A stretch of 64,000 nt of DNA from an uncultured Gemmatimonadales bacterium (GCA_963798915.1 CAWCVB010000003.1:96001-160000), one strand, 5' to 3'; positions 44,755 through 62,091 are shown, counted from the stretch's first letter. Translations and numbers: made by a program. The notes: a model not told the origin generated them from the letters alone.

Positions 44755-45720
44755 TCAGTGCGCTTCCTGCATCAGCCCGATGAATACCGACGTGAGCAGG
44801 GCAAAAACGTACGCCTGCAGGAAGGCAACGAACACTTCCAGCAGCATGATGCCGGTCGCCATGACGGCCGACGCGACGCCCACCGAATAGCTCTTGAAGA
44901 TGAATGTCAGCCCCACCAGGGCGAGCACCAGCACGTGACCCGCGGTCATGTTGGCGAACAGGCGGACCGCCAGCGCGAACGGCTTGGCCAGCTTCCCGAT
45001 GATTTCGATCGGGGTCATGATGATCAGCATCAGCGGCTTGAGGATCCATCCGGCGACGCCGCCGGGTAGCCCGTGCGGAAGAAAGAAGATGGTACCGAGA
45101 TACCCCTTCACTCCCAGCGCCTTCATGCCCGACAGCTCGATCACCAGGAACGCCACCACCGCCAGCGCCGCCGTCACCGAGATGTTACCGGTGGCGGTCG
45201 CGCCCCACGGCAGAACACCCAGCAGGTTCATCACCAGAATGAAGAAGAACAGCGTGAGGATGTAGGGTGCGAAGCGGGCCGAATGGGGGCCGGCGTTGGG
45301 CAGCACCACGTCCTGGCGCACCCAGAGCGCCATCGCTTCCATGGCACTGGCAAATCCTCTCGGCGGCCGGTTCTGCTGCTGGGCCCGGCGCACCGAGCGT
45401 CCGCTCATGATGAATACCAGCGCCACGAGGGCGGCCGCAAACATCATGAACACCGTATGCTTGGTGAGGCTCAGATCGACGGCGTACTTGCCGACGTGCA
45501 CCGGCTGCCAGTGAGGAAGATGGATGACCCAGCCAAAGGGCAGCTCGATCTCGTCGGAGTTGCCGATGTGGTGCAGGATGTCGATTTCGTCGCGCTGACC
45601 CCGCTCGGCTTCCAGCTGCCCGGCGGTCTCATGCTGCTGTGCGGCCAAGGGCGAGGCGGACGAGAGGCCCGCCAGGCCGAGAACGAGAATGAGGGAGAAC
45701 CAGCGCGTGAATCGCATCAT
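44755..45720 (-). CDS. atpB: ATP synthase F0 subunit a
   Basis: ALAVRLFANMTAGH, LQAYVF. Confidence 0.95.
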   Translation of the reverse strand: MMRFTRWFSLILVLGLAGLSSASPLAAQQHETAGQLEAERGQRDEIDILHHIGNSDEIELPFGWVIHLPHWQPVHVGKYAVDLSLTKHTVFMMFAAALVALVFIMSGRSVRRAQQQNRPPRGFASAMEAMALWVRQDVVLPNAGPHSARFAPYILTLFFFILVMNLLGVLPWGATATGNISVTAALAVVAFLVIELSGMKALGVKGYLGTIFFLPHGLPGGVAGWILKPLMLIIMTPIEIIGKLAKPFALAVRLFANMTAGHVLVLALVGLTFIFKSYSVGVASAVMATGIMLLEVFVAFLQAYVFALLTSVFIGLMQEAH

Positions 45721-45725
45721 GGCCG

Positions 45726-46088
45726 TCAGGTGCGAGGAAGTGCCGCCAGTGCCACGACGCCCTCGACCAGGAGGAGCGCCGTCAGCAGACCGGCCAGTGT
45801 CACCAGGAGCGGGGTCGCTGCCAGTCCATACGCTGGGCCGACCACCGCCGCCAGCAGTCCGATCAACATCAGCCGGCCCAGGACTCCGAGGCCCCAGACC
45901 AGCAGGAATCGCTGGGTACCGACTGACCGGATCACCCACCAGCCTAGCGGCCCCTGCACCAGGACCGACGCCAGGAGAGCAATCCAGACCGCGGGGTGGT
46001 CGGCCTCCGGCACCATGCGGAACGCCAAGGCCGCGCCGAACGCCACCACCATCAGGACCAGCGCAGGGTAGAGGTAGCGTGTCCTCAT
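45726..46088 (-). CDS. ATP synthase protein I-like membrane protein
   Basis: Four TM helices directly upstream of atpB. Confidence 0.7.
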   Translation of the reverse strand: MRTRYLYPALVLMVVAFGAALAFRMVPEADHPAVWIALLASVLVQGPLGWWVIRSVGTQRFLLVWGLGVLGRLMLIGLLAAVVGPAYGLAATPLLVTLAGLLTALLLVEGVVALAALPRT

Positions 46089-46332
46089 GACTCACCCCCG
46101 CCATCCTGCCCGCCCCTTGCCCGTCCTGCCCGACTTGTCGAATCAGCGACCACATGGTGCCTCCGAAGCCCAGAAAGGCGCCCACAATGGTCAGCAGCGA
46201 GCCGGTTCCCAGCTTCCGGTCGGCCCACTGCCCTGCGTACAACCCGATCAACATCATGACGGCCAGTTGGATGCCCAGACCGGCAAAGCGCATGGGCGAC
46301 GGACCTTGGCCGCCCTTGGGGGTCTCTGGCAC
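46085..46332 (-). CDS. AtpZ/AtpI family protein; apparent frameshift in G run near 46113
   Basis: GLGIQLA...GQWADRKLGT; adding one G gives ...GQDGGGES* overlapping the next ATG. Confidence 0.75.
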
Positions 46333-47665: not shown

Positions 47666-48730
47666 TCACAAGGGCAATGGCGGCCCTCCGCCGGCCAGCG
47701 CGATGATCGGATCGAACATCCGCAGCGGAATGAACAGCCCGAGGAAACTCACCCCGGCCGCCGACTCGAGCACGTCAGACTCGTCGCTGCTCAAGGTCCG
47801 GCCGTCGGTCGCCGTCAGCGTCTCGCCGTCATAGGTCGCCCAGGTGTCGCCGTTGACCTTGATCGTGAAGGTGAACGCATCGCTGTAGCCGGCCGATGCG
47901 GTAAGGTCCAGCCGCCCATTGGGACTCGTAATCGTCTCCGACAGCACGAAGGTTCCGGTGGCAGCGTCATCGTTGTAATTCCCGTTGAAATGCAGGTCGA
48001 ACGAGAAGTCGCGGCTGGGCATGTCCAGCGATGAGGTCATGTCAAAGGTGGACGTCCCCGTGTCGTTGGTGGACGCGTTGGCCGCAAAGTCCACATTGAG
48101 GCGCCCGGCTGGGAAGACGAGGTAGCCGGCCACGGCCAGCTCGCCCGAGGTTTCATCGCCGGTCACCTGCACCGTGTAATCCATGATCGTCGCGCTTCCG
48201 ACCACTGCCACCAGGCGCGCTTTCGAGGTGCTGCCGCTCGACAGGTCGGTGAGGTCGACATAGCCGGTTTCCACCAGCGGAGTGACGAACTGGCCTTCAG
48301 CATCCTGCTCATAGAGGATCACCCGGATGCCGTTGGCCGGTGCACCGGTACGGTCCGAGGCCACATACTCGCCAGTAGCATCATCGTAGACCCAGACTTT
48401 GCCGGCGGCTTCGGGGGGAATCGCCAGCGACGCGCTGATGGCCGGCGTGCTGATGCTGGAACGCAGTGTTGCCGCGACGGTGCGGGCGTCCTGCTGCCGG
48501 ATGGGGCGGCTGGCGAGCCGACCGACGCTCACGACGGCGGGCGTCCCGCCGAGCGAGGCCGAGACGCCGTCGAATGCCTGGAAAATGCTGTTGTCGCTGA
48601 CCCCACCGAATGTCTCGATGTCAGTGCCCATGGCGCTTGCATCGAATTGGCTGGGGCCGGAATCGCCACAGGCCGCGATCAGGGCCACGGACAGGATGGC
48701 GAGGGCCGCGCGGGTCTTGCAGAACGCCAT
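47666..48730 (-). CDS. Hypothetical lipoprotein
   Basis: IAAC lipobox; beta-rich body. Confidence 0.7.
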   Translation of the reverse strand: MAFCKTRAALAILSVALIAACGDSGPSQFDASAMGTDIETFGGVSDNSIFQAFDGVSASLGGTPAVVSVGRLASRPIRQQDARTVAATLRSSISTPAISASLAIPPEAAGKVWVYDDATGEYVASDRTGAPANGIRVILYEQDAEGQFVTPLVETGYVDLTDLSSGSTSKARLVAVVGSATIMDYTVQVTGDETSGELAVAGYLVFPAGRLNVDFAANASTNDTGTSTFDMTSSLDMPSRDFSFDLHFNGNYNDDAATGTFVLSETITSPNGRLDLTASAGYSDAFTFTIKVNGDTWATYDGETLTATDGRTLSSDESDVLESAAGVSFLGLFIPLRMFDPIIALAGGGPPLPL

Positions 48731-48877
48731 GACTCGGTCTCCTGGGTCGTGAGTCACGGGTCCCGGGTCGCGGGCCGCAAGACTCAGCGATAACACATGG
48801 TTAGCTCATTGGTGCCAGGCATTGCACCTTGGCGGATTGATCAGTGCCACCAAGGAGGGGCAATGGGTGGGCCATCA

Positions 48878-49024: not shown

Positions 49025-49064
49025 TTTTACTCCCCGTTGACAATCCCGCTGCATATTGGTGCTC

Positions 49065-52000
49065 ATGACTGCGCGTTTTCAGCTCAGGTGCCTGGGTGAG
49101 CCGGCGTTGCTGCGGGCTGACGGCCAGGCCGTCCGGATCAAGGTGCGGAAGCACACCGCGCTGCTCATCTATCTGGTGCTGGAAGGCGACCGCCGCCACC
49201 GGCGTGAGAAGCTGGCCGAGTTGCTGTGGCCCAACTTGCCGGATGCCGATGGGCGGCACTCGGTCGCCACCGCCTTGACGTCACTGCGGGCGGCTTTCGG
49301 GCAGGAGGTCCTGGACAGCAACGGCAACGGCGTGCGCTGGAGCTTTCCCCACTTGGACCTGGACCTGCACCGGCTGCAGAACGGCCAGATTCTGGGCGAT
49401 GAGGTCACACCACCGCTGGATGTGGCAGCCTTCCTGGATGGTTTCGAGGTGCCCGACGCCGCTGGCTTCATGCTGTGGCGCGAGCAGCAGCGCGCCCGCT
49501 GGCATCCTTGCATTCGGGACGGCCTGGTCCTCCTCATGGACCGGTGCCGGCGCACCGGCGACAGCCAGCAGATCGAGCAGCTGGCCGATCGCATGCTGGC
49601 ACTTGACGAGCTCAGTGAGGAGGCAGTGCGGGCCAAGATGGAGGCCCGTGCCTTTGCCGGCGACCGGGTCAACGCCCTCAAGATCTTCGAAGCGTGGCGC
49701 GAGCGGTTGCAGGAAGAACTCGGCGCCGTCCCGTCGGAGCGGATTGATGGAATGGCCATGCGTCTCCGGAAGCGGAGCTGGGAGCGTGCGACCCAGCACG
49801 CCATTTCGCCGGTGCGCATTGACCAGTGGAAGGACCGCCCCTTCATCGGCCGGGGACGCGAGCACCAGCAGTTGTATGAGGCGTGGGAGCGCATGCAGCG
49901 CGGTGACGCAGGTCATGCCCACGTCCTGGGCGAGTCAGGCATCGGCAAGACGACCCTGGTGGAGCGCCTCTCCACGGCCGCGGGGCTGGAAGGTGCCTCA
50001 GCCGCTCGGGTTCAGTGCTACGACATGGAGCGGGAGATACCCTACGCGGCCATCGGTGGCTTGGTGCGGAGCCTGCTCGAGCGGCCCGGCGCCAGCGCCG
50101 CGTCGCCCGAGGCACTGGCCGACCTGGCACAGGCGGTGCCGGAGATTCGGCGCCGCTTCCCCAACATTCCCGCCGCCTCCGACAGCATCGGCGAAACTGC
50201 CCGCCTTCGGATCGCCGAGGCCCTGCATGAACTGGTCAGTGCCGTGGCCGACGAGCATCCGCTGGTGCTGGTCATCGACGACCATCATCTGGCCGACGAC
50301 GCGAGCCTGGCCCTGTTGCATCACCTGCTCCGGCGGGTAAAGGGCCAGAAGGTGATGATGGTCTTCATCGGACGCGCCAGCGAGCTGGGCCAGTCACCCC
50401 ACGCGGTGCGGCTCCGCGACAACTTTTCCCAGTTCGGCGCGATCACCCTCGAACTGACCCCCATGACGCCGGCGGAATGCGACCGGCTGGTTACGGCGTT
50501 GTGTCCGGAGCCCGATCGCCAGCCCAATGCGGCCACGCGACGGGCGCTGATTCGGTCCGCGCGCGGCTATCCGATGGTGCTCGAACTGCTCTGCCAGGAC
50601 TGGGAGGAGCGGGGGGAGCGCTCGTTGGCGCTGGCACTGGATGCGATGACCATCCAGCCCGACTCGGCGGCCGCGCCCGCCGAAACCTTCCGCCAGCTGT
50701 ACGAGCGGATTGCGCAGTCGCTCGATCCAGGTGCGCGCAATGTGCTCAATCTCGCGGCCATCCTGGGTCATCGGGTCAACGACATCAGCATGTATTCTCT
50801 CGCCGACCTGTCGCTGGGCCAGACGATGGGCGGCATCTCCCGGCTGACCGAGCTTCGGGTGCTCCGGGACGGCGGCGACGGGCTGGAGTTTGTCAACGAA
50901 CTGATCCGGACCCACGCCTACATGGGCGTGCCCAGCGCCATGCGGCGGGTCCTGCATGCGAGCATCGCCCAGCGCCTCATCGACAGTGAGCAGGAGGGCA
51001 CCGAGGTGATGGGGCTCGAGATTGCCTGGCATTGCATTCGTGGCGGGCGGGTGGAGGAGGCAGTGCCCTACCTGCTGCGCGGCGCCCGACAGGCGCTGCA
51101 ACGCGGGGCACCGCACTCGGTTGAGCTGGCGCTCTGTAGTGCCACGGCAGTGCTCAGCACAGCTTCCGACCGGGCCTCTGCCGCGTTGCTAGTAGTCGAG
51201 TCTCTGCAGGAACAGGGGGAATGGGATCGCTCTTTGGTTGAGCTCGAAACACTAGAGACGCACAGCATCACTTCTTTTGAATGGATGAGAGAGGCCCAGA
51301 TTTGTGCAGCTAACTCAGCGCTCTACAGATACGATGAAGCACAGGCCATCACGATGGCGGAGCGCCTCGTTGGCGCGATTGCGCAGGTAGATGACCCGTT
51401 CACCAGCGCCGCATTGGCTAGGGCAACATCGGGCCTAGTCCTCTCGACGCGAAGTCCGGTCCTGGCCGCAAATACACTCGAAGCTCTAGCTTGCTTCGAT
51501 TCGAAAATGCTTCAAAGCCCGGGGCGGCAGGACTGGCTACTGGCTCAACTGAGAATTCGGCTGATGGTCGGGGAGACTGACGAGCTAGAGCATTCACTCA
51601 AGTCGCTTTCGCTCGAAATGGTGGAAACAAAGACAAGGAGCAGCTCCGCAGCAATGCTTGCGATCGGCCGGGGAGGTTTCTGCTGCGCTACTGGTCGCTA
51701 CCAAGAGGCGTTAGATCACTTCGACAGCGCCTTGAAGATTGCAATCGAACTTGGTAATAGCTCGCTGATCGCTTCGGCGAATGCGAATCGAGCGCTTTGT
51801 TTTGGGATGCTTGGTGACTTTGTCCAGCAGGTGCTTTGTGCGAGCGAAGCCTTAGCGCAAGAGCGTCACGTCACCGGCTCCTATCGGCAGATATTGGCGC
51901 GCTATCATGTGGCAGTCGGCAACGCAATGGGTGGTCGACAATCTGAGGCTTTGTCGGCAGCGAGAGGGCTGGAGGGCTTGGCTCTGGAGAGTGCGCCAGC

Positions 52001-52460
52001 GTGGGTGCAACAGGTGCGATTGTTGTTCCTCGCCGATGCGTTCTGGCTGGCAGGCAGACGCCGGGCGGCGATGAAGGCAGCGGCACTTGGGGTGACGGGC
52101 GACTTTGCGCTGCCTTTGGCCACCGGATTCACAGGAACACACGCGCGGTGGCTAGCGCGAGTAACCGACACATCAGAGTCCGCTCACCGTTACTTAGCGC
52201 AACTCGATATTCGATCTGATGAGTTCGACTTGATCGATCGAGCTGAAATAGCCTTGGCTCGATGGATCCTTTCGGAGAGGATGGAGTTGCCACATTCCGC
52301 CGCCGCTTACGATGAGGCTACGGGGCTCCTGCGGTGTTTGCCCGATGCTGCCACGCAGTTCTTCGCACGCCTTGAGTTTGTGCTGCAGCCTCGGAGTCGC
52401 GTCTCTGCATCGGCTAGGAAGAGCGCGGCGTCAGATAACTCTCAGCGCTTATCCGACTGA
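49065..52460 (+). CDS. SARP/BTAD transcriptional regulator with AAA ATPase and TPR-like C-terminus
   Basis: REKLAELLWP wHTH, BTAD, Walker A GESGIGKT, LVIDD Walker B, helical repeats. Confidence 0.88.
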   Translation: MTARFQLRCLGEPALLRADGQAVRIKVRKHTALLIYLVLEGDRRHRREKLAELLWPNLPDADGRHSVATALTSLRAAFGQEVLDSNGNGVRWSFPHLDLDLHRLQNGQILGDEVTPPLDVAAFLDGFEVPDAAGFMLWREQQRARWHPCIRDGLVLLMDRCRRTGDSQQIEQLADRMLALDELSEEAVRAKMEARAFAGDRVNALKIFEAWRERLQEELGAVPSERIDGMAMRLRKRSWERATQHAISPVRIDQWKDRPFIGRGREHQQLYEAWERMQRGDAGHAHVLGESGIGKTTLVERLSTAAGLEGASAARVQCYDMEREIPYAAIGGLVRSLLERPGASAASPEALADLAQAVPEIRRRFPNIPAASDSIGETARLRIAEALHELVSAVADEHPLVLVIDDHHLADDASLALLHHLLRRVKGQKVMMVFIGRASELGQSPHAVRLRDNFSQFGAITLELTPMTPAECDRLVTALCPEPDRQPNAATRRALIRSARGYPMVLELLCQDWEERGERSLALALDAMTIQPDSAAAPAETFRQLYERIAQSLDPGARNVLNLAAILGHRVNDISMYSLADLSLGQTMGGISRLTELRVLRDGGDGLEFVNELIRTHAYMGVPSAMRRVLHASIAQRLIDSEQEGTEVMGLEIAWHCIRGGRVEEAVPYLLRGARQALQRGAPHSVELALCSATAVLSTASDRASAALLVVESLQEQGEWDRSLVELETLETHSITSFEWMREAQICAANSALYRYDEAQAITMAERLVGAIAQVDDPFTSAALARATSGLVLSTRSPVLAANTLEALACFDSKMLQSPGRQDWLLAQLRIRLMVGETDELEHSLKSLSLEMVETKTRSSSAAMLAIGRGGFCCATGRYQEALDHFDSALKIAIELGNSSLIASANANRALCFGMLGDFVQQVLCASEALAQERHVTGSYRQILARYHVAVGNAMGGRQSEALSAARGLEGLALESAPAWVQQVRLLFLADAFWLAGRRRAAMKAAALGVTGDFALPLATGFTGTHARWLARVTDTSESAHRYLAQLDIRSDEFDLIDRAEIALARWILSERMELPHSAAAYDEATGLLRCLPDAATQFFARLEFVLQPRSRVSASARKSAASDNSQRLSD

Positions 52461-52473
52461 ACTCCCTACAGAT

Positions 52474-53874
52474 TCAAACCTTTCGATTACCTCGCCAAAA
52501 GGAGGGCGCCGGCCAGGCAACCCGCCTGGAACGCTGAGGTTGGTCCAGGCCCGCTTCCGCAATGGCGGTATTACCGGCGATCATGCGGCGAATCGTGACT
52601 GAGCCGATAACCAAGTCGACCAATTCCGGATCAAACTGCGTACCACGACATTTCTGCAATTCGGAGATCACGATATCAAGGCCCAGTCTTTTGCGGTATG
52701 GCCTGTCAGTAGTCATTGCGTCTACCGTGTCACATACTAGTATGATTCTCGACCCAAGCGGAATGGACTTTCCCGCAAGTCCGCTCGGATAGCCTTGCCC
52801 ATCCCAACGCTCATGATGGTGGCGGACAGAGTCCTGAACAAAGCCACGGAACTTCGAGATAACGCCTACCAGCTCGGCACTCCTTGTCGAGTGCGTTTGC
52901 ATCAATGCTGTTTCCTCTGGGGTAAGGCGCGCCTCCTTGCGTAACAGAGGAGCGAATTCCTCGTGAATCTTTCCGACGTCGTGAAGCAATGCAGCAGTCT
53001 CGACTTGCTCGGCCTCACGAACCGCGAGTCCCCGCTCCATAGCGATTAGCCGCGCCAGTTCACTCACACGCACCGAGTGGCCAGAGGTGTACGGATCTCG
53101 TGCTTCAATAGCTTTGACCATCAGCTGCAGCAGTTCCTGGCCGCTGTGCTGCAGTTGGTGATAAAGGCCGTACACGTAACGAACCATGATGATCGGTGGA
53201 ATAACGAAGAATAGTCCGTACGGTCCAAAGCCCCAGGTGCGTTGCGAGTACGCGTAGGCCCAAGCTACTCCCATGGCCATTACACTCGCGCCGATGTCGT
53301 AGCCAAGAATGCCGCGGGTGTTCAAGCTCCAAACATCACGAAATTGTCGATCAGAGCTGAAAGCCACCGCGACGCTAACGAGAGCAGAATTTATGAGAAA
53401 GTAAAGCGCCGCGAATACAAAGAAGAGCCCGATGTCCCGCTGAACATCAGCGACCAGCAGCGTAGCGAATCCGCCCCCTAAGTAGGCCGGCGGAATAGAA
53501 CCGCCAAGCAGGCGGTAAACCAAGAGCGAGACTGTGACTGACAGAACTCGCTGAGCAACGTTAAAAAGGGTCTTCTTTTTTGCCGTCCCTGCTAGTGCGT
53601 GATTTATTCCGACCGAAACTCCGGCCGTCACGCCACCCCAGAATGCTCCGAAGAGCATCGCGCTGGAGATGTGCATAACAAATGAGACGGAACCGCGAGC
53701 GGAAACACGAAGTGGAATGCCAGTCTTGTCAAGCAGAAATGCGATTACAATGAAGGTTCCGATTTCCCAATAGCCCGGGAAGATCGGCGCGACCTGAAAG
53801 GATAAGACCATTGCTCCCGCCGCCGCCGCGACGGCAGCGACTATCAGCAGGTCAACCTTCGAGTCGCGTGGCAT
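52474..53874 (-). CDS. Membrane-anchored HD-GYP phosphodiesterase
   Basis: About 7 TM helices; ARDPYTSGHS, LHDVGK, HHERWDGQGYP. Confidence 0.9.
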   Translation of the reverse strand: MPRDSKVDLLIVAAVAAAAGAMVLSFQVAPIFPGYWEIGTFIVIAFLLDKTGIPLRVSARGSVSFVMHISSAMLFGAFWGGVTAGVSVGINHALAGTAKKKTLFNVAQRVLSVTVSLLVYRLLGGSIPPAYLGGGFATLLVADVQRDIGLFFVFAALYFLINSALVSVAVAFSSDRQFRDVWSLNTRGILGYDIGASVMAMGVAWAYAYSQRTWGFGPYGLFFVIPPIIMVRYVYGLYHQLQHSGQELLQLMVKAIEARDPYTSGHSVRVSELARLIAMERGLAVREAEQVETAALLHDVGKIHEEFAPLLRKEARLTPEETALMQTHSTRSAELVGVISKFRGFVQDSVRHHHERWDGQGYPSGLAGKSIPLGSRIILVCDTVDAMTTDRPYRKRLGLDIVISELQKCRGTQFDPELVDLVIGSVTIRRMIAGNTAIAEAGLDQPQRSRRVAWPAPSFWRGNRKV

Positions 53875-53903
53875 AGAAGGTATAGGGTGGGGACCCTTTT
53901 AGC

Positions 53904-53984
53904 TTAGACCCAGTCTTGGCCGTCAGCCATTAACAGCTTGGCGACAAAATTGACCATCGCCGAAACGACGTCGATAAGCAACAT
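53904..53984 (-). CDS. Small 26-aa peptide MLLIDVVSAMVNFVAKLLMADGQDWV (below the ORF-track cutoff)
   Basis: ATG..TAA in frame; strong SD AAGGGGGGTGA 5 nt upstream; 29 nt before HD-GYP start. Confidence 0.7.
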   Translation of the reverse strand: MLLIDVVSAMVNFVAKLLMADGQDWV

Positions 53985-54175
53985 GAGCGTCACCCCCCTT
54001 CGGGTACTATCCGATACTTCGGGAAGTGGCGAGCCTCGCTATGGCCCTCCAGACGCTCCGCTTTTTGGTCCGTCCGCTCGATTCCGCTTTTGGTCTTTCG
54101 ACCTGGGCCCCCGACCCGTGAGTTCCTTTCGTCAACCAGCGAGTGAACCTGCCGCCCGCACCAGTGCCTGCCGCG

Positions 54176-54976
54176 CTACTCCGGCCGGCGCATCTCCGTC
54201 CACCGGTTGGTGGCATCCAGCACCGCAAAAACCGCCGCCCGCTCGGCGCTTTCCTTGATCTCCGCCGAGCCGGTGAGGAGCAGGGAATCCCGCCCCCCCA
54301 GCCCCTGCACGCCCACGAACGCAAACTGCCGCTCGAACGCCTCCACGATGCGCGCGCCTTCCAACCCCAGCGCCACCGTGGCACTCACGTCCGCCAGCAG
54401 GCGATCGAGGACGGTGACCGCCGCCTTGGCCGCAGCCTCGACCCGGCTCCTCGGCGTGTCACTCGATTCCTCCGAGGCCATTTCGGTCTGGCTCCGATAG
54501 CTGAGCGTCACCTGGATGCCGATCCGGTGGGGCCGCTGTCCAGGGGCCACCGTCAGGTTCTCGAACAGGACCGCACGGCGCAGCACCTGCTCCCGCACCG
54601 CCGTCTGCTCCAGCGCCTCCAGCGGCCTCACCTCCGCCGTCTGCGCCACGCTGATCTTCCTATGATCCACCCGAAGTCCGAGTTGCGCCAGCAGCGCCGA
54701 CTCGATGTTCCGCACCAGTTGCTTGGGCTGCAATCCCGACTGCGCCAGGATGTGCACCTCGCTCACCTCACCCAACGGGGTGGTCACCACCCGCGCCGAG
54801 AGAATGCCCTCGAGACTGGTGAGCAGGTTCTCGGCCCGGCGTACCCCCCATGGATCCGGAATGGACTCGTTCGGAGTCTTGCCCGGATTGGTGGTCGCGC
54901 CCTGATGCCTGGCTGAGTATGGTCCCGTCACTGGTGCTCCGTATTCGGGTAATTCGCGCCACTTGTCGTCGGTCAT
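54176..54976 (-). CDS. Conserved hypothetical protein
   Basis: EVHILA..PKQLVRNIES, VDHRKISVAQ, AVLDATNR; host-like codon usage. Confidence 0.75.
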   Translation of the reverse strand: MTDDKWRELPEYGAPVTGPYSARHQGATTNPGKTPNESIPDPWGVRRAENLLTSLEGILSARVVTTPLGEVSEVHILAQSGLQPKQLVRNIESALLAQLGLRVDHRKISVAQTAEVRPLEALEQTAVREQVLRRAVLFENLTVAPGQRPHRIGIQVTLSYRSQTEMASEESSDTPRSRVEAAAKAAVTVLDRLLADVSATVALGLEGARIVEAFERQFAFVGVQGLGGRDSLLLTGSAEIKESAERAAVFAVLDATNRWTEMRRPE

Positions 54977-55023: not shown

Positions 55024-56709
55024 TCATGCCACCACGTTTCGCCCGGCCGCCTTTGCACGGTACAACGCCCGGTCGGCCGTGACCAGCAGGTCACCCTCGC
55101 CCGGCTGCTTGGGATCGAACTCGGCAATGCCGCAGCTCACCGTGATGAGTCCCGACTCGTAGCCCAGCCGCCGGCCCACCCCTTCGATGCCGGCCCGCAG
55201 CGCCTCGGCCACCCGGGTGGCACCGGCCAGGTCGGTCCGGGTCAGGATTACCACAAACTCGTCGCCGCCGTACCGGGCCGCCACGTCCGAGGCACGCACC
55301 GCATTCCGGACCTCCCCCGCGGCAGCCCGCAGGATTTCGTTGCCGGCCTCGTGCCCGTAGGTGTCGTTGACCTGCTTGAATCGATCGAGATCCAGGAAAA
55401 GTACAGCAAAGGTCTCGCCATTCCGGCGGGATCGCTCGATTTCGAAGGACAGCCGGTCCCGGAGCACCCGGTAGGTGGACAATCCGGTCAGGAGATCCAC
55501 CGCGGCGGCCTTCTGGGCCTCCTCAGCCCGGCGCTCCTGGTACGGCAGGCACTGCCGGAGCGTGGCCCGGCCGGCGGCGGCCACTTCGGCAAATTTTTGA
55601 CAGGTGTCAAATCCGCATGCACCGCAGTCCCACGGCCGACCGTTGGGCCCCAGCCCGATGGCACCCAGGATGGCGGTCACTGTCTCGCTGTCCGGTTGCA
55701 TTCGCTCAGGCCGGATGTCAAAGACCGCGCCGACGCTCGCCACCACGGTGCGATCGAGCACCGGCGTCGGCGCCCGCGGGGGCTCGGTGCTGGCGATGAG
55801 CGCCCGGCGCCAGAAAAGCTGGTCCTTGGGCCCGGCGAGCGGGTGGTCCAGCAGCCCCTCGTAGGAGAGGATATCCACGAACCCCAGGTCCATCCGGTCC
55901 ACGCTCACCGCCCGGGCAATGGCCGGGAGCTGGTCCAGCCCGCGCACCATGCGGAAGCGCCCGCTCGCCTGCTTGAACTCTTCCAGCAGTTCGAGCGGCA
56001 TGCCGCCGGCCGCGCTCAGGTGCCGGCGCCGCTCCTCGGGCACCCGATTGAACCAGGTAGGCTGGGCCAGGATGTTCACCCCCCGCGCCCGCAGCACCTC
56101 TTCCAGGTCACCAAAGGTGATCGCGGCATCCAGGTCAGGCGCGCCCTCGGCGGCATTGACCCCGGCATGAACGATCTGCAACCCCGGCCCGAACCGAACC
56201 CGAAGGTGGCGGGCCTCGGCCACCGACGGTGTCGTGACAGGAGCGAGATAGGGAATCAGTTCTGGGTACTGGGCGCGAATGGTGTCCACCACGACCGGGT
56301 CGGTGGAACGAATGAGAGTGCCCCAGGGTTCATCCCGCCACAACTTGAGGTATTCGGCGGCAACCAGCTCGTCGCCGATGACGCCCCGCGTGACGGTCCG
56401 GAACCCCGCCTCATAACAGCCGTTGACCACCTGTTCCGGCGTGGCGGGGTAGAAATGGGCCACCATCTCGGGGCTGAGGATCAGGATACCGTCGCCCTGC
56501 GCGGCAATGGCCAGGGCACGCCCGACCTCGCCGTTGACCCGGACCGCGTCGTGCGGGCACACGGAGTAGCACTGGCCGCAACGGATGCACAGTTCGTCAA
56601 CCACCTGCAACAGCGGAGCCTCGCCGGCCACCGCGATCGCATCGGTGGGGCAGTCACGGACGCATGCCAAGCATGCGACACACGATTCCGCGTCGATCAC
56701 GAAGTGCAA
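55024..56709 (-). CDS. Diguanylate cyclase with 2x[4Fe-4S], FeFe-hydrogenase-like and FeS domains
   Basis: Two CxxCxxCxxxCP motifs, CGACGFDTC..C, RASD I-site, RYGGDEF. Confidence 0.85.
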   Translation of the reverse strand: MHFVIDAESCVACLACVRDCPTDAIAVAGEAPLLQVVDELCIRCGQCYSVCPHDAVRVNGEVGRALAIAAQGDGILILSPEMVAHFYPATPEQVVNGCYEAGFRTVTRGVIGDELVAAEYLKLWRDEPWGTLIRSTDPVVVDTIRAQYPELIPYLAPVTTPSVAEARHLRVRFGPGLQIVHAGVNAAEGAPDLDAAITFGDLEEVLRARGVNILAQPTWFNRVPEERRRHLSAAGGMPLELLEEFKQASGRFRMVRGLDQLPAIARAVSVDRMDLGFVDILSYEGLLDHPLAGPKDQLFWRRALIASTEPPRAPTPVLDRTVVASVGAVFDIRPERMQPDSETVTAILGAIGLGPNGRPWDCGACGFDTCQKFAEVAAAGRATLRQCLPYQERRAEEAQKAAAVDLLTGLSTYRVLRDRLSFEIERSRRNGETFAVLFLDLDRFKQVNDTYGHEAGNEILRAAAGEVRNAVRASDVAARYGGDEFVVILTRTDLAGATRVAEALRAGIEGVGRRLGYESGLITVSCGIAEFDPKQPGEGDLLVTADRALYRAKAAGRNVVA

Positions 56710-56859: not shown

Positions 56860-58368
56860 TCATTCCAGCGAATAGGCTTTGATCTTCCGGTACAATGTTC
56901 GCTCCCCGATCCCCAGCTGCTCTGCGGCCCGGCGCCGGTTTCCCCGCGCCTCCCGGAGCGCCGCCCCGATCGCCGCCTTTTCCACCTCTTCCATGGTCAT
57001 GCCGGAGCGGTAGACGACGTCCTCATCGGTGTCCTGCTCGGCAATCTGGGACAGCTCGCCGACGATCGGGTTATCGGACAGCTCGATGACTCGGACCCGT
57101 GGGGGCCCATCGTCCAGCCGGCGGCGCAGTTCCTCTACCTGCAGGCGCAGGTCCACCAGGTTCCGGAGGATGAACTCCAGTTCCTGACTCCCCATGCCAT
57201 TCTCCCGGATCATCTGGGGCACGCGCACCGGCAGCAGTGCCGGCCCCTCGAAGATGTCGGGCGGGATGTCGCTGGCCCGGATCTCGGTGCCCGGCGCCAA
57301 AACCACCATGCTCTCGATCAGGTTGCGAAGCTGGCGGACGTTGCCGGGCCAGGGAGCGTTGACCAGCCGCTCCATGGCTTCCGGCGCAATGCCACGGAAG
57401 GTACGGTCATGCAGGCGGGCAAATTCCCGCGTAAAGCGGCGAACCAGCAGCGGGATATCGCCCCGCCGCTCGCGCAGCGGCGGCAGATAGATGTTGAGCA
57501 CGTTGAGCCGGTAATACAGGTCGTCACGGAATTCGCCCAGCGCCACCAGGTCCTTGAGCGCCCGATTCGTGGCCGTGACGACCCGGACATTGACCCGGAT
57601 CGGCTGGGTGCCTCCCACCCGGAAGAAGCTGCGGCTCTCCAGCACGCGGAGCAGCTTCACCTGCACGTTGAGCGGCAAATCGCCGATCTCGTCCAGAAAG
57701 ATCGTGCCGCCATCCGCCAGCTCGAACCGCCCGAGCCGTCGTTCGGCCGCGCCGGTAAAGGCGCCCTTCTCGTGGCCAAAGAGTTCGCTTTCGAGCAACG
57801 ACTCCGGCAGCGCTGCGCAATTGACCGCGATGAAGATCTTGCCTCGCCGAGGCGACAGGTCATGCAGCGCCTTGGCCACCAGTTCCTTCCCGGTGCCACT
57901 CTCGCCCTGGATGAGCACCGTGCTGGTGACCGGCGCCATCTGCTCGATCTTGACCAGCACTTCCTGGATGGCTTCGCTCTCGCCGGCAATGCCGGTGCGT
58001 TCCTGAAGCTGCCGCCGCTCGATCAGTCGGCGGGCCAGGCCGGTCAGCTCATCGGCTGACGCGGGCTTGAGCAGGACGTCGGTGGCCCCCAGGCGACTGA
58101 CCCGGTCAGCCCGATCGGAATCCGTCGACTCCAGCAGCGCCAGCGTGGACGCCTCGGCCTCGCGCGCCAGTGCCATGAGGTGACGGGCAGGCGGCTCGTA
58201 GAGCGCGCCGGTAAGGATGATCAGCTCAGGGTGCTCCCGCCGGAGCGCGCCTGGTGCATCATCGAGCGAACTGACCATTGCCGTGCTGAACCCGGCCGCC
58301 TCCAGCGCCGCGTTGGCGCGGACGGCGGTTTCGAGATCGTCCATCGTGATGAGGATCTGGCTGGCCAT
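56860..58368 (-). CDS. Sigma54-dependent activator with atypical receiver domain and Fis HTH
   Basis: GESGTGKE, GAFTGA, WPGNVRQL, HTH; receiver has Thr at the phospho-Asp position. Confidence 0.9.
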   Translation of the reverse strand: MASQILITMDDLETAVRANAALEAAGFSTAMVSSLDDAPGALRREHPELIILTGALYEPPARHLMALAREAEASTLALLESTDSDRADRVSRLGATDVLLKPASADELTGLARRLIERRQLQERTGIAGESEAIQEVLVKIEQMAPVTSTVLIQGESGTGKELVAKALHDLSPRRGKIFIAVNCAALPESLLESELFGHEKGAFTGAAERRLGRFELADGGTIFLDEIGDLPLNVQVKLLRVLESRSFFRVGGTQPIRVNVRVVTATNRALKDLVALGEFRDDLYYRLNVLNIYLPPLRERRGDIPLLVRRFTREFARLHDRTFRGIAPEAMERLVNAPWPGNVRQLRNLIESMVVLAPGTEIRASDIPPDIFEGPALLPVRVPQMIRENGMGSQELEFILRNLVDLRLQVEELRRRLDDGPPRVRVIELSDNPIVGELSQIAEQDTDEDVVYRSGMTMEEVEKAAIGAALREARGNRRRAAEQLGIGERTLYRKIKAYSLE

Positions 58369-58696
58369 GGGGGAACTTAGGCGGGAAGACGGGAAGACGG
58401 GAAGACGGGAAGACGGGCAGAATCCACAGCAGCGCGTCACTCTGAGCGAAGCGAAGAGGCCGGAGACCGAAACTGCGAGCACGTCTTGTACGCACTGCCA
58501 GCGCATGGACCATCCGGTCCTGGCTAGAGCCCGATACGCAATCCGAGAAACACGCTTCGCCGCCAGATGGCGCGAGGTTCATGATTTTCAGGAAGCTCAT
58601 GCCGATGCGCCCAGGACGACGGGGTGACGCCGAGCTCTCCTGACATTTCCAAGTCTCTGCTCTTCGGCCGCTGCGCGGGCTCGGAGTGACAATTCC

Positions 58697-58849
58697 TCAG
58701 CCGCCCCCGTGGCCCCCTCCTGCGGTCCCGCGCAATTGCTCCACCGCATGATTCAGCAGTCCCGCGAGGACGTTCAATCCGTCGCGCACGCCGGAGCGAC
58801 TGCCGGGCAGGTTGATGATGAGGGTCCTGGCTCGGGTGCCGGCCACACC
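58697..58849 (-). pseudogene. Orphan duplicated 3' end of mog (50 codons)
   Basis: GVAGTRARTLIINLPGSRSGVRDGLNVLAGLLNHAVEQLRGTAGGGHGGG* aligns with the mog C-terminus. Confidence 0.85.
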
Positions 58850-59237
58850 AGGATGCTGGGATTGCTACTTCGGCAATAGAACTCGGGCACCTCGGACAGC
58901 GCATCCCAGTGAGCGGCGGCCCGCCACTGGTTGATGGCACCGGCCATCGCACCGCTGTCGGCCGAATTCTAGGCCCCGCTTGATATCTGCGCATTGCGGG
59001 GCCACGACGCTGTGAAATTGGAAAGGCCCGTGACGTGGCACACCAGCAAATGGAAGTTCAGCCCCTCAATAACGCGGGGGGGGGCGGTGGGCAGGTCCTG
59101 GGCGCAGGCCCAGAGCGAGACCAGCAGCCCGGGGGGCCTTGCGAGGTACGGCTTTCCGAACCAGATCTAGCGGCGGGCATGCAGCTGCCTTCGCCGCTGC
59201 GGTGCTCGCAGTAACACCGCCCATGGAGGTAATCCCC

Positions 59238-61420
59238 ATGTATCTCCAGCTCCGCACTCCGGCTGCCATCGCATCACTCCAATATCCGGGTAATGCGCTG
59301 AAAGTGCCGGGATATTTCGCTTTGCTCATGCTGATCTTGACGGCCACTGCCGTCGCCCAGTCCCAAGAACCGCCGGTCGCCCGCCAAGTGGACACCGTCG
59401 ACCACGTGTTTGGCCTGACCATGCCTGATCCGTACCGCTGGATGGAGGGCGAGAACAACGCCGAGTTCAGCGCTTGGCTCACAGCGCAAGGAGCGGCCTC
59501 GCGCCGCAAGCTCGATTCGCTGCCCACACTGGCCAGTTGGCGCGAGCGGCTGACCGGGGCCGCGGGGGCTACCACGAGGCATAGCAGCCACCGGCAAGTG
59601 GGCGGGCGGCTGTTCTTCCTGCGCGCGCCCGCCGGCAAGGAAGCGATGCTGATGGTCCGCGAGCCCGACGGCCGCGAGCACGTCATTGTCGATCCCGCCA
59701 AAGACCCAGGCAGCAGCCTGAGAAAGTACAGCGTGTCGCCGGACGGCGCCAAGGTCGCCGTTAATATCGGCCACGGCGGCAACGAAATCAGCGAGCTCGC
59801 GCTGTTCGACATCGTCACCGGCACACGGTTGCCGGACACCCTCAAGCCGGTATGGAGCGAGTTCGACGCGAACTGGCTGCCGGACGGCAGCGGATTCTTC
59901 TATACCCGCATGCGTGACATCCAGCCGGGCGATGCGGACCCGCGCAGGGGACGGCCGCCTACCTGCACCGGCTCGGCCAGCCCCAGGCGAACGACCGCCT
60001 GATCGCTCGCGCCGGCGCCGATGATGCGCTCAAGATTCCGGCGCACGACTTCCCCATCATGTGGCTCCAGCCGAACAGCGACTGGATCGGACTGGTCATC
60101 GGCGGTGCCCGCGCGTCGCAGGGCACCTGCTTGGCGCCACGCGCGGAAGTCTTGGCCGGCAACCCGAAGTGGCGCTGCCTGATCGACGTGGCCGACAACG
60201 TGCAGAGCGGCGCGCTGCATGGGAACACGCTGTACATGCTGTCGGCGAAGGATGCGCCGAACCGGCGTATTCTGGCGCTCGATCTCAGCGATCCGAAAGC
60301 ACGCTGACTGATGCGCGGGTCGTCGTACCCGAACGCACCGATGCCGTGCTGACCGATCTGGCTGCCGCGTGCGACGGGTTGTATCTCAAATTGATGCGCC
60401 ATGGCCTGGACCACATCGAACGGATGGATTATGCGAGCGATGCGCTCCATCCAGTCGCCATGCCGGGCGACGGCACCGTCGCGCTCATGCGGACCGATCC
60501 GCGGCAGGATGGCGCCTTGCTGTCGCTGGAAGGCTGGATCACGCCCCGCAAGGTCTATCGGTACAACCCGGCCAGCGGCAAGCTTACCGACACCGGCCTC
60601 GGCACGCTCGGTGCGCCGGTGTATGCAGAGGGACCGCTGAGGAGATCGAAGCTACCAGCGCCGATGGCACCAGGGTGCCACTGAGTGTGATTCACCCACG
60701 GGCGCTCGCCAGGGACAGCACCGCGCGCGCCATCGTCTTCGGTTACGGTGGCTACGGCATGAGCATGCAACCGTTCTTCGCTCCGCTCTTCCAGGAATGG
60801 CCCAAGGCGGGCAATGTGATGGCCATCTGCCATGTGCGCGGCGGCGGTGAAAACGGCGACGCCTGGCGCACCGCCGGCACCGGCCCCAACAAGCAGCGCG
60901 GCATCGAAGATTTTATCGCCTGTGCTAAGGAACTGACCAGACGCGGCTACAGCAGTCCGCCGCGCACGGCGGGCTTCGGCGGAAGCATGGGTGGCATCCT
61001 GACTGGTGGCGCCTACACGACCGCGCCGGCGGCGTGGGGCGCGATGATGGTGCAATCGGGCATCTTCAATTCGGTGCGGCTGCTGGCGGCCAAGAACGGC
61101 GCCAATCAGATCGCCGAGATGGGCGATCCGCGCACCGCGGAAGGGATGAAGCAGTCTGTTGGCGATGGATCCATACCAGCACGTCCGTGACGGGACAACG
61201 TATCCGCCGCTGCTATTGGTCACGGGGGCGGTTGATCAGCGGGTGGCGCCGTAGGAACAGCGGAAAGTTCGGTGCGAGGGTGATGGCGGTGTCACCGGCC
61301 ACACCGGTCTGGTTCCGCACTGACGACCAGTTTGGCCACTTCGCGACCAACGCCAACGTTGCGGCGCTGGAATTGGCGGATGTCTTTGCTTTCGCCGATG
61401 CGCAGACGAAGGCACCTTGA
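59238..61420 (+). pseudogene. S9A prolyl oligopeptidase with about five frameshifts
   Basis: GGAGG RBS; DPYRWME, GYGGYG, VRGGGENG, GGSMGG, D.RV, GH spread over several frames. Confidence 0.8.
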
Positions 61421-61598
61421 AGATGGCGCTAACCCGGATCCCCGCCCACGTCCTGCCCCCGCGCGCGCCACGGTACGGCCAGTTCTCAGCGCCGCGAGGC
61501 CATCCCGCACACTGCCCAACTTCCCGAAGCAGGCAGGAAGATCCTTCAGTCGCTGCGCGACCTCTGCATGACACGCGCACACTCACCGCGCTCCACTC

Positions 61599-62091
61599 TC
61601 AGCGCCCATGCCCCCCTCCCGCACCCTCCCCGCGGATCAGCCCCACCGCATGCCCGATCAGTGGCGCCAGCACGTCGAGCCCGTCGCGCACACCGCTGGG
61701 GCTGCCGGGCAGGTTCACGATCAGCGTCCGGCCCCGCACGCCGGCCACGCCGCGTGACAGCACGGCATACGGCACTTTCGGATAATTCGCTAAGACGAAT
61801 CGCCTCGGCGATGCCGGGCGCTTCGCGGGTCAGAACCGGTTGGGTTGCCTCTGGCGTGACATCGCGGGCTGCGAGGCCGGTGCCGCCAGTGGTGAGCACC
61901 AGATCAGCGGAGTCGTTATCCGACCAACGCAAGAGCCACTCGCTGATGCGCTGGCGCTCGTCAGGCACCATCTCCCGCGCTACCACGTCGTAGCCCTGCG
62001 CCATGGCCCACTGAGCAATGGCGGGGCCGGAGAGATCTTCCCGCTCGCCTCTGCTCCCGGCGTCCGAAATGGTGAGCACGGCGATACGCAT
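61599..62091 (-). CDS. mog: Molybdopterin adenylyltransferase Mog/MoaB family; frameshift near 61790
   Basis: LTISD, TTGGTG..RDVTPEA, then SRGVAG...NLPGSP in second frame. Confidence 0.85.

Follow-up and report, generated by a model that had tools for sequence, protein, structure and literature searches.

A conserved small open reading frame upstream of a MASE9/HD-GYP gene in Gemmatimonadota: a candidate microprotein partner for a membrane sensor domain

The locus described here lies in a stretch of 64,000 nucleotides (nt) from an uncultured Gemmatimonadales bacterium (GCA_963798915.1 CAWCVB010000003.1:96001-160000), hereafter called the window. It comprises a small open reading frame (ORF) of 26 codons, a structured leader ahead of it, a downstream gene for a predicted phosphodiesterase of cyclic di-GMP (c-di-GMP) carrying a MASE9 sensor domain, and a large regulator gene that converges on the latter. 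An earlier reading of the sequence alone (the original prediction) had singled out this locus as a possible peptide-signalling cassette. We analysed the conservation, RNA structure and divergence of the locus, and considered the product of the small ORF as a candidate partner of the MASE9 domain.

Genes and base composition of the locus

The main coding features are the following:

53904-53984, minus strand: small ORF, 26 codons plus TAA, product MLLIDVVSAMVNFVAKLLMADGQDWV
52474-53874, minus strand: MASE9/HD-GYP gene, 466 amino acids (aa), with MASE9 at about residues 1-240 and HD-GYP at about residues 241-466 (Pfam and NCBIfam matches)
49056-52460, plus strand: BTAD-AAA-TPR regulator ORF, 1134 aa
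49056-51109, plus strand: conserved N-terminal half of the regulator, with BTAD and AAA_16 (the STAND NTPase), defined by domain matches and identity to relatives
51110-52460, plus strand: variable, TPR-containing C-terminal half of the regulator, left part of the low-GC block, defined by third-position composition, identity and contig breaks

A Shine-Dalgarno sequence (SD), AAGGGGGGTGA, is found 6-16 nt ahead of the ATG of the small ORF, and 29 nt separate its stop codon from the ATG of the HD-GYP gene (53874). The translated product would form a hydrophobic helix with one polar face, followed by ADGQDWV. The 466-aa protein matches MASE9 (PF20972) with 31.5 bits (cut-off 24.3) over residues 89-190, as well as HD_5 (113.6 bits) and HD (66.1 bits), and the motifs HDVGK and HHERWDGQGYP are legible in its translation. 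On both counts it is predicted to be a MASE9 sensor fused to an HD-GYP c-di-GMP phosphodiesterase. The regulator ORF, 13 nt away on the opposite strand, displays matches to BTAD (33.1 bits), AAA_16 (92.9 bits) and TPR_12 (30.1 bits, exactly at the cut-off); no N-terminal winged-helix DNA-binding domain was detected at E values up to 0.01. Judging from this combination of BTAD, P-loop NTPase and TPR, the protein fits the SARP/AfsR-like STAND transcription regulators. The 26-aa ORF with its strong SD and 29-nt gap, and the convergence of the HD-GYP gene on a BTAD-AAA-TPR regulator, had all been proposed originally; sequence, domain matches and the 13-nt spacing confirmed them.

The G+C content of 51110-54120 is 0.567, the lowest of any 3-kb stretch of the window (mean of all others 0.661, standard deviation 0.013, minimum 0.621), so that the announced drop in composition is real; the three hand counts that had accompanied it (47, 29 and 27 G or C per 60 nt) were reproduced exactly. 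At third codon positions, the G+C content (GC3) decreases from 0.81-0.84 in the adjoining genes to 0.59-0.61 in the C-terminal half of the regulator and in the HD-GYP gene. Within the regulator itself, it is 0.84 in the N-terminal half versus 0.61 in the C-terminal half. The gene order is common to relatives from several genera: on the plus strand a MoxR ATPase gene, a 376-aa ORF of no family and the regulator; on the minus strand the HD-GYP gene, the small ORF, a conserved gene called P0003 here, an Fe-S/GGDEF gene and a sigma-54 activator gene.

The small ORF and its leader RNA

A scan upstream of HD-GYP orthologues had been set beforehand as a test at which the small ORF might fail. It did not fail: in Gemmatimonadota the ORF was recovered in 61 distinct loci. 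Nineteen of the 20 best loci from 40 relatives contained an ORF of 17-31 codons just 5' of the HD-GYP orthologue, in a conserved GGAGGTGACGC context, and the twentieth was cut off upstream. Among the 31 best contig loci, the ORF was found by pattern in 24 and by a looser scan in 4 more, the last 3 again being cut off upstream, and a further 29 loci were reached through the RNA model described below. Some of these data (the L015 row from G023, the L131 row from G098, and tallies including G110, G562 and G718) come from genomes marked as unpublished, and no claim is based on these alone.

The products are 16-35 aa long, widely diverged and hydrophobic throughout, with a tryptophan near the C-terminus. 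Over 55 aligned sequences this Trp is the sole invariant column; its codon lies 0-5 codons, mostly 0-2, ahead of the stop, and an acidic or small residue is kept 4-5 places ahead of it. Against three congeners, the ratio of nonsynonymous to synonymous rates (dN/dS) of the small ORF was 0.11, 0.20 and 0.11, values that derive from 24-26 codons each and hence from small counts. By these comparative criteria, the small ORF is a real, conserved coding gene under purifying selection at the protein level.

Similar ORFs precede MASE9 genes in other phyla. Full-length matches of the MASE9/HD-GYP protein in Actinomycetota, Bacillota, Pseudothermotoga and Thermus altitudinis have a same-strand upstream ORF of 25-32 codons, whose product starts with a Lys-rich segment and continues with a hydrophobic helix, small residues and 3-4 further residues, with a Trp at or beside the end. 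We then surveyed MASE9 (PF20972) matches sampled from four phyla. In Thermotogota and Deinococcota, 48 of 58 MASE9 loci displayed an upstream ORF of 15-45 aa with at least 55% hydrophobic residues and a Trp in the last four residues, versus 2 of 58 in a reverse-complement control. Eight of the 10 misses, all from Thermotogota, visibly carry a variant with a few residues past the Trp. With the Trp allowed anywhere in the last eight residues, and two loci dropped for lack of upstream DNA, the figures for Bacillota and Actinomycetota were 35 of 57 versus 5 of 57 in the control; the loci without such an ORF mostly have long open frames of more than 550 aa. Altogether, a small ORF of this kind was detected directly 5' of MASE9 genes in at least five phyla (Gemmatimonadota, Thermotogota, Deinococcota, Bacillota and Actinomycetota).

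The peptides matched no Pfam or NCBIfam model. An exact look-up retrieved three of nine from public records, as "hypothetical protein", the others being uncalled. Our literature search returned no paper tying MASE9 or HD-GYP to an upstream small ORF, and the terms "small protein" and "upstream" are absent from the main text of the preprint that defines MASE9 (bioRxiv 10.1101/2021.11.05.467447), the supplements being outside this search. The original remark that this is not a described family thus agrees with what was found in Pfam, NCBIfam, Rfam and the literature.

Several observations were made on these loci in passing. Two actinomycetotal loci (L257 and L266) contain the Trp-ended ORF as two identical tandem copies 5' of the MASE9 gene. 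In Thermus altitudinis (L074, 2101-2176), the small ORF is directly followed by a hairpin with a T-run, then by a second G/C hairpin before the HD-GYP start, an arrangement that suggests a terminator or attenuator between the two genes. A DUF5317 gene directly follows the MASE9/HD-GYP gene in Thermus-type (L156, L212) and Bacillota (L157, L158) loci, and a DUF6115 gene adjoins it in Thermotogota (L155, L162); both may be further conserved partners.

In Gemmatimonadota, the stretch of 190 nt that separates P0003 from the small ORF is conserved. RNAalifold, applied to 21 sequences, gave a structure of three elements (P1, P2 and an anti-SD), to which a long-range helix, P0, can be added. In the window, the leader comprises:

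53976-54131, minus strand: structured 5' leader RNA, match of model R1 (RNAalifold and covariance model)
54061-54052 with 53991-53982, minus strand: helix P1, GCGGAGCGUC pairing with GACGCUC..AUG (RNAalifold)
about 54050-54028, minus strand: hairpin P2, covarying stem with loop (A/G)UAGCGA, AUAGCGA in the window
54029-54021, minus strand: anti-SD CCACUUCCC, pairing with the SD at 54000-53991 (RNAalifold)
54088-54082, 54079-54072 and 54062-54052, minus strand: three AGCGGA repeats in the leader sequence
54105-54117, minus strand: 5' strand of helix P0, GGGUCGGGGGCCC, complementary to 53896-53885
53885-53896, minus strand: 3' strand of helix P0, GGGUCCCCACCC, starting 8 nt past the stop of the small ORF and ending 10 nt before the ATG of the HD-GYP gene

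The covariance model has one match in this genome (129.5 bits, next-best 19.5 bits). It matched 55 of 121 genomes of the order, the genome of the window (G000) included; leaving the latter aside, matches were obtained in 39 of 46 genomes of its own family, 13 of 27 of a second family and 2 of 47 of a third, almost always as a single match per genome. Over 49 sequences, 96.8% of cells pair, versus 32-50% with slid partners, compensatory changes occur in 10 of 25 pairs and none of 500 shuffles reached any of five measures, although the alignment was fitted to the model and so favours the structure in these counts. In loci of the Gemmatimonadaceae type, one conserved stretch, GAGCGGAGCCAACCU, pairs directly with the SD and spacer. 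The leader is thus modelled to sequester both the SD and the start codon of the small ORF.

Helix P0 would extend this structure across the small ORF. Its 5' strand is G/C-rich and lies about 110-145 nt ahead of the AUG. For the best uninterrupted helix in each of 54 loci, the 3' strand starts 2-32 nt past the stop, and at most 21 nt past it in 48. Cognate duplexes averaged -37.6 kcal/mol versus -29.2 kcal/mol for non-cognate ones, the paired sequences covary, and the cognate partner ranked among the top five of 54 in 28 loci.

The search of Rfam 15, which includes the c-di-GMP riboswitches, gave no match in the window at gathering score; at E values up to 10, the region 53800-54300 yielded a single match, to a viral element, with 15.7 bits. 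The leader is a candidate new cis-regulatory RNA, present in single copy per genome and with strong covariation. A fourth copy of the AGCGGA repeat is found in the P2 loop, and this repetition suggests a putative repeated binding site. CsrA was considered as a binder of these GGA-containing repeats and rejected, as this genome, which is 84.8% complete, has no PF02599 match. Promoter scans detected no sigma-70-like site, and sigma-54-like matches were at the level of chance (36 found, 31 expected). In one genome (G127), two strong copies of the leader and small ORF were detected (L219 and L220), whose contexts are only 70% identical; these could be two loci, or two organisms in one bin. That their flanks are only 70% identical led us to reject the reading as co-existing alleles.

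A low-GC, fast-diverging block between conserved flanks

In seven relatives examined, GC3 decreases from 0.71-0.97 in the flanks to 0.54-0.71 in the C-terminal half of the regulator and the HD-GYP gene, the catalytic half of G007 (0.84) being the sole exception. Since this dip is common to all seven, it must be old and maintained. For the same reason, and because synteny is also shared, a recent horizontal import of the block was rejected.

Comparison with a close relative, G005, separates the block from its surroundings. The proportion of synonymous differences (pS) between the window and G005 is 0.73-0.89 in the HD-GYP gene, which is saturation, versus 0.33-0.49 in P0003, the GGDEF gene and the sigma-54 activator gene, and 0.59 in the N-terminal half of the regulator. 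Nonsynonymous divergence (dN) is alike in the two compartments (0.05-0.085 in the HD-GYP gene, 0.03-0.08 in the flanks). A dN as low as that of the flanks despite saturated pS indicates strong purifying selection on old alleles rather than relaxed constraint.

The edges of the block are sharp. In the closest pair, G005 and G001, the DNA is 91-96% identical over a stretch that starts inside the sigma-54 activator gene and takes in the leader and the small ORF, except for one 200-nt bin at the gap between the GGDEF gene and P0003 (23 gap columns, 81%); at the start of the HD-GYP gene, identity drops to 64-77%. At the protein level, this pair is 94.9% identical in the sigma-54 activator, 98.6% in the GGDEF protein, 97.0% in P0003 and 96.5% in the N-terminal half of the regulator, and either genome is 87-95% identical to the window in these flanks. 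In the MASE9 domain, the highest identity is between the window and G005 (87.1%), G001 standing apart from both (70.4% and 72.1%); the values for the catalytic domain, in the same order, are 92.9%, 86.2% and 88.4%. The HD-GYP gene tree is therefore discordant with the flank tree. On the other side, the regulators of the window and G001 share 53% of residues in the C-terminal half versus 87% in the N-terminal half. Five further pairs with close flanks, from other lineages, have P0003 proteins 88-93% identical, MASE9 domains 43-68% identical and clearly different peptides.

Assemblies tend to break at the same edges. A G001 contig (C28) ends at about 51115 and overlaps the next contig by exactly 141 nt, with 100% identity. 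A G016 contig breaks at the left edge with an exact 55-nt end overlap, and G005 also breaks there. Such exact end overlaps indicate assembly-graph branches at the edge of the block. The contigs of G002 and G009 end in the small ORF or leader, that of G008 ends within P0003, and these three bins contain no HD-GYP orthologue; one G057 contig ends inside the small ORF. Of nine genomes that belong to the same genus, five have breaks at block edges, and three of those five bins are without the enzyme gene. From the sequences, we read these breaks as standing variation in the sampled populations.

The HD-GYP gene and the C-terminal half of the regulator thus appear, on comparative evidence, to be an old block of low GC3 between conserved flanks. 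The variable block with conserved flanks that had been foreseen is borne out by this divergence and by the disagreement of the two trees. Its low GC3 would be explained if diverged alleles recombine little: the GC-raising effect of recombination would then be weak and AT-biased mutation would prevail. Next to it, the 376-aa ORF of no family (47666-48796, minus strand) is only 38-60% identical within the genus, versus 77-95% in the adjoining genes, so fast evolution reaches beyond the low-GC block on the regulator side.

The peptide was then compared with the sensor. Over 41 loci, peptide distance correlated with MASE9 distance when flank distance was allowed for (partial r 0.43; 0 of 2000 permutations as high), versus 0.08 for the reverse partial correlation of peptide with flank. 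In the pair G005/G001, the first 18 residues of the peptide, which lie in the conserved flank, are the same but for one residue; only the C-terminal tail differs, and this change coincides with the change of HD-GYP allele. A natural 30-aa family member was also co-folded with its own MASE9 domain and with three controls. The score was 0.59 (runs 0.59, 0.63 and 0.56) versus 0.00 for the best control; the runs share at least 93% of contacts, and the partner has a predicted local distance difference test value (pLDDT) of at least 67. In the calibration of the co-fold tool, 116 of 157 solved complexes attained the mark, as did 2 of 215 mismatched pairs, and the range at or below 0.60 holds 18 of the 157 solved complexes and both passing mismatches. 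The model gives weak support to binding of the peptide to its own MASE9 domain.

Of the co-variation originally predicted between peptide and HD-GYP protein, the statistical part stands, peptide divergence following the membrane domain and not the flank, while its cause is inseparable from linkage; the suggested co-fold with the membrane domain was likewise returned with weak support. A link to the TPR region found no support beyond a shared or adjoining block: the neighbours of MASE9 genes in eight loci from other phyla are DUF5317, DUF6115, GTPase and other genes, and no STAND regulator was among them. Similarly, no processing, maturation, modification or export gene was recognised among the neighbours of the locus.

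The conserved flank consists of the following genes:

54176-54976, minus strand: P0003, conserved protein of no named family, directly 5' of the leader
55024-56709, minus strand: Fe-S/GGDEF protein with two 4Fe-4S motifs, an [FeFe]-hydrogenase large-subunit-like domain and GGDEF
56860-58506, minus strand: sigma-54-dependent activator

In Gemmatimonadota, P0003 is constantly found beside the locus, and three Bacillota loci contain it as well. It has more than 3192 relatives, all "hypothetical", many of them encoded on contigs of only 1-3 kb, and neither Pfam, NCBIfam, PDB sequences nor Atlas provided a name. In its model (pLDDT 83), a first domain of alpha-beta-beta-alpha-beta topology precedes a doubled beta-beta-beta-alpha domain. 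The C-terminal domain resembles the leucine/isoleucine-binding regulatory domain of LeuA/citramalate synthase (template modelling score 0.55-0.56 on target), so that the modelled fold points to a ligand-binding regulatory domain and not to a protease or transferase. The product of 55024-56709 is a possible redox-sensing diguanylate cyclase, judging from its domains, in the same gene string as the phosphodiesterase.

Further away, a stretch of about 3.2 kb (58413-61600) is absent from the syntenic loci of relatives: there, DNA matching 61600 onward comes directly after the sigma-54 activator. A prolyl oligopeptidase (S9) gene is spread over three overlapping plus-strand frames (59139-60002, 60061-60684 and 60369-61190), which indicates a broken gene or assembly indels. 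At 44755-46332 (minus strand), one 525-aa frame combines a match to ATPase_gene1 (AtpI-like) with a full ATP synthase subunit a; possibly these are two genes that appear as one frame when read from an early start codon. Finally, a reading of the locus as a defence island or anti-phage STAND system was rejected, PADLOC giving only generic P-loop and HD hits of 16-30 bits.

Interpretation and comparison with known systems

We propose that the product of the small ORF is a microprotein that acts as partner to the MASE9 sensor domain of the downstream HD-GYP phosphodiesterase, a proposal that on the present sequence data could equally well prove right or wrong. The peptide would insert into the membrane, pack against MASE9 and tune c-di-GMP hydrolysis. 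MASE9 has been argued to bind a ligand within the membrane (Galperin and Chou, bioRxiv 10.1101/2021.11.05.467447). In Gemmatimonadota, the leader RNA would gate translation of the peptide, the SD and AUG being locked in helices, and a ribosome at the stop of the small ORF would open P0, so that no enzyme would be made without the peptide. An ancient allele block, diverged and recombining and bounded by conserved flanks, would comprise the HD-GYP gene, in most cases the C-terminal part of the peptide, and the sensor half of the regulator.

A number of points weigh against this proposal. In Gemmatimonadota, the peptides are without the N-terminal positive charges seen in other phyla, and some, of only 16-19 aa, are too short to span a bilayer. 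The kinship of these ORFs with those of the other phyla is drawn from position, length, hydrophobicity and terminal Trp, with no significant sequence score, and about one third of the MASE9 loci of Bacillota and Actinomycetota have no such ORF. Because peptide and MASE9 are adjacent, a shared recombination history could yield the same correlation. The co-fold pass is weak by its calibration, which, the alignments being self-made, holds only roughly. The block is not uniformly low in G+C. Finally, the structures just past the stop and the invariant Trp codon may also fit a purely cis-acting leader peptide.

In that last case, the peptide itself would be functionless: ribosomes on the ORF would remodel the downstream RNA (P0, or the terminator-like hairpin in Thermus) and couple the HD-GYP gene to translation or to Trp-tRNA. 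The short distance from the stop to the P0 3' strand, the hairpin and T-run in Thermus altitudinis, the absence of a visible SD at the HD-GYP ATG in the window and the position of the one invariant Trp codon near the stop are all in keeping with it. However, a single regulatory codon would be a poor sensor of tRNA charging, and a functionless peptide would hardly keep a hydrophobic helix, plus a positive N-terminus outside Gemmatimonadota, across five phyla despite sequence divergence. Together with dN/dS well below 1 and the weak co-fold support for binding, this makes a purely cis-acting role decidedly improbable. The peptide might instead be an exported signal, cleaved from its precursor after the small residues to release a Trp peptide of 3-8 residues, which MASE9 and/or the TPR half of the regulator would sense in co-diversifying specificity groups. 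The ORFs of other phyla do resemble signal peptides, with a Lys-rich start, about 14-18 hydrophobic residues, small residues (LAGGA, AAGAS) and 3-4 residues ending in Trp, and among Thermus species the residues beside the Trp vary while the hydrophobic part is constant. The tail-only difference in the closest Gemmatimonadota pair, which accompanies the HD-GYP allele, and the hypervariable block with conserved flanks and a discordant tree match the pattern of agr and comQXP. Yet the Gemmatimonadota peptides have no charged N-region, variation of the peptide within the genus is far below that of pherotype pheromones, and the genes beside the locus include none recognisable as serving processing, modification or export. 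Moreover, a peptide whose translation is so closely tied to that of the enzyme is more readily seen as a subunit than as a diffusible signal. We regard export as unlikely.

The divergence of the block could also reflect mere fast evolution, relaxed selection and assembly difficulty causing the low GC, divergence and breaks with neither allele exchange nor specificity. The fast-evolving 376-aa ORF next to the block is in keeping with such a view, and STAND sensor domains are generally quick to evolve; against it stand the discordance with the flank tree, the sharp edges and the exact 141-nt and 55-nt contig-end overlaps, which indicate assembly-graph branches, and we consider it very unlikely. 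At the other extreme, the microprotein proposal can be extended to a Trp-ended peptide that would serve as MASE9 ligand or co-sensor in at least five phyla. In Gemmatimonadota, its tail, the sensor and the STAND half would then form a co-diversifying cassette kept by balancing selection and flank recombination, and a kin or self discrimination would be wired to c-di-GMP breakdown under the gate of a new riboregulator. This extension is unlikely in our judgement.

According to the accessible text of Galperin and Chou (bioRxiv 10.1101/2021.11.05.467447), a single MASE9 protein has been the subject of study so far. For this widespread sensor domain without a known signal, the upstream microprotein is a concrete and testable candidate for what MASE9 binds, and culturable carriers exist, such as the Thermus isolate behind L074. 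The block also clearly exemplifies an allele cassette that is old, low in GC3 and recombining, within a core regulatory locus of an abundant soil phylum, and its variability probably excludes the locus from many short-read metagenome-assembled genomes.

Sensors with small-protein partners, pherotype cassettes and leaders that sequester an SD are each known kinds of systems. For their combination at this locus, for the peptide family and for the RNA motif, our search of libraries and papers brought up no description. MgrB and SafA (both with PhoQ), KdpF and AcrZ are small membrane proteins that modulate membrane sensors and pumps. Like these, the product of the small ORF is hydrophobic, shorter than 50 aa and encoded beside a multi-pass membrane protein on which it would act, with binding expected in the bilayer; a hydrophobic product below 50 aa with a membrane helix is clear in Thermotogota, Deinococcota, Bacillota and Actinomycetota, and the Gemmatimonadota members, of 16-35 aa, are without N-terminal charges and in some cases too short for a bilayer. 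It differs in that the partner would be a MASE9 HD-GYP phosphodiesterase, in that the family is defined by one invariant C-terminal Trp and in that the ORF is preceded, in Gemmatimonadota, by a leader of its own that sequesters the SD and is adjoined by a hypervariable block, its binding being weakly predicted.

The agr (AgrD/AgrC) and comQXP systems share with our locus a small peptide gene that adjoins a membrane sensor, and a hypervariable block that ends inside a gene, between conserved flanks and with disagreeing trees; this holds here for the sensor and only partly for the peptide, most of which, in the closest pair, lies in the conserved flank. The differences are that nothing like the maturation enzymes AgrB or ComQ turned up among the neighbouring genes, that an HD-GYP enzyme takes the place of a histidine kinase as the output, and that the phylum is diderm. 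Nor does the regulator resemble the HTH-TPR (helix-turn-helix) or phosphatase-TPR receptors of RRNPP systems, as it is a 1134-aa STAND protein of BTAD-AAA_16-TPR type. In RpfC/RpfG of Xanthomonas, which responds to the fatty-acid diffusible signal factor (DSF), a separate kinase phosphorylates a REC-HD-GYP protein. There too, an HD-GYP protein ties a cell-cell signal to c-di-GMP turnover, but in our locus one protein combines sensor domain and enzyme, and a gene-encoded peptide is proposed as the ligand.

The trp leader, TnaC and MifM are systems of leader-ORF coupling or attenuation. As in these, translation of a short ORF reaches an RNA structure just past its stop, and a Trp codon is conserved; here, however, membrane-protein features are kept across phyla, and the gating helices lie 5' of the ORF and hide its own SD and AUG. 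Finally, small membrane proteins of C. difficile are encoded behind class I c-di-GMP riboswitches, which control their transcription, and act on sporulation (PMC13724677). They resemble our candidates in being small and membrane-associated, in belonging to the c-di-GMP network and in being controlled by an RNA leader. As far as the accessible text of PMC13724677 describes them, they are unrelated and longer (four helices, with residues numbered to at least 57) and are not encoded beside a phosphodiesterase, whereas the small ORF described here directly precedes one.

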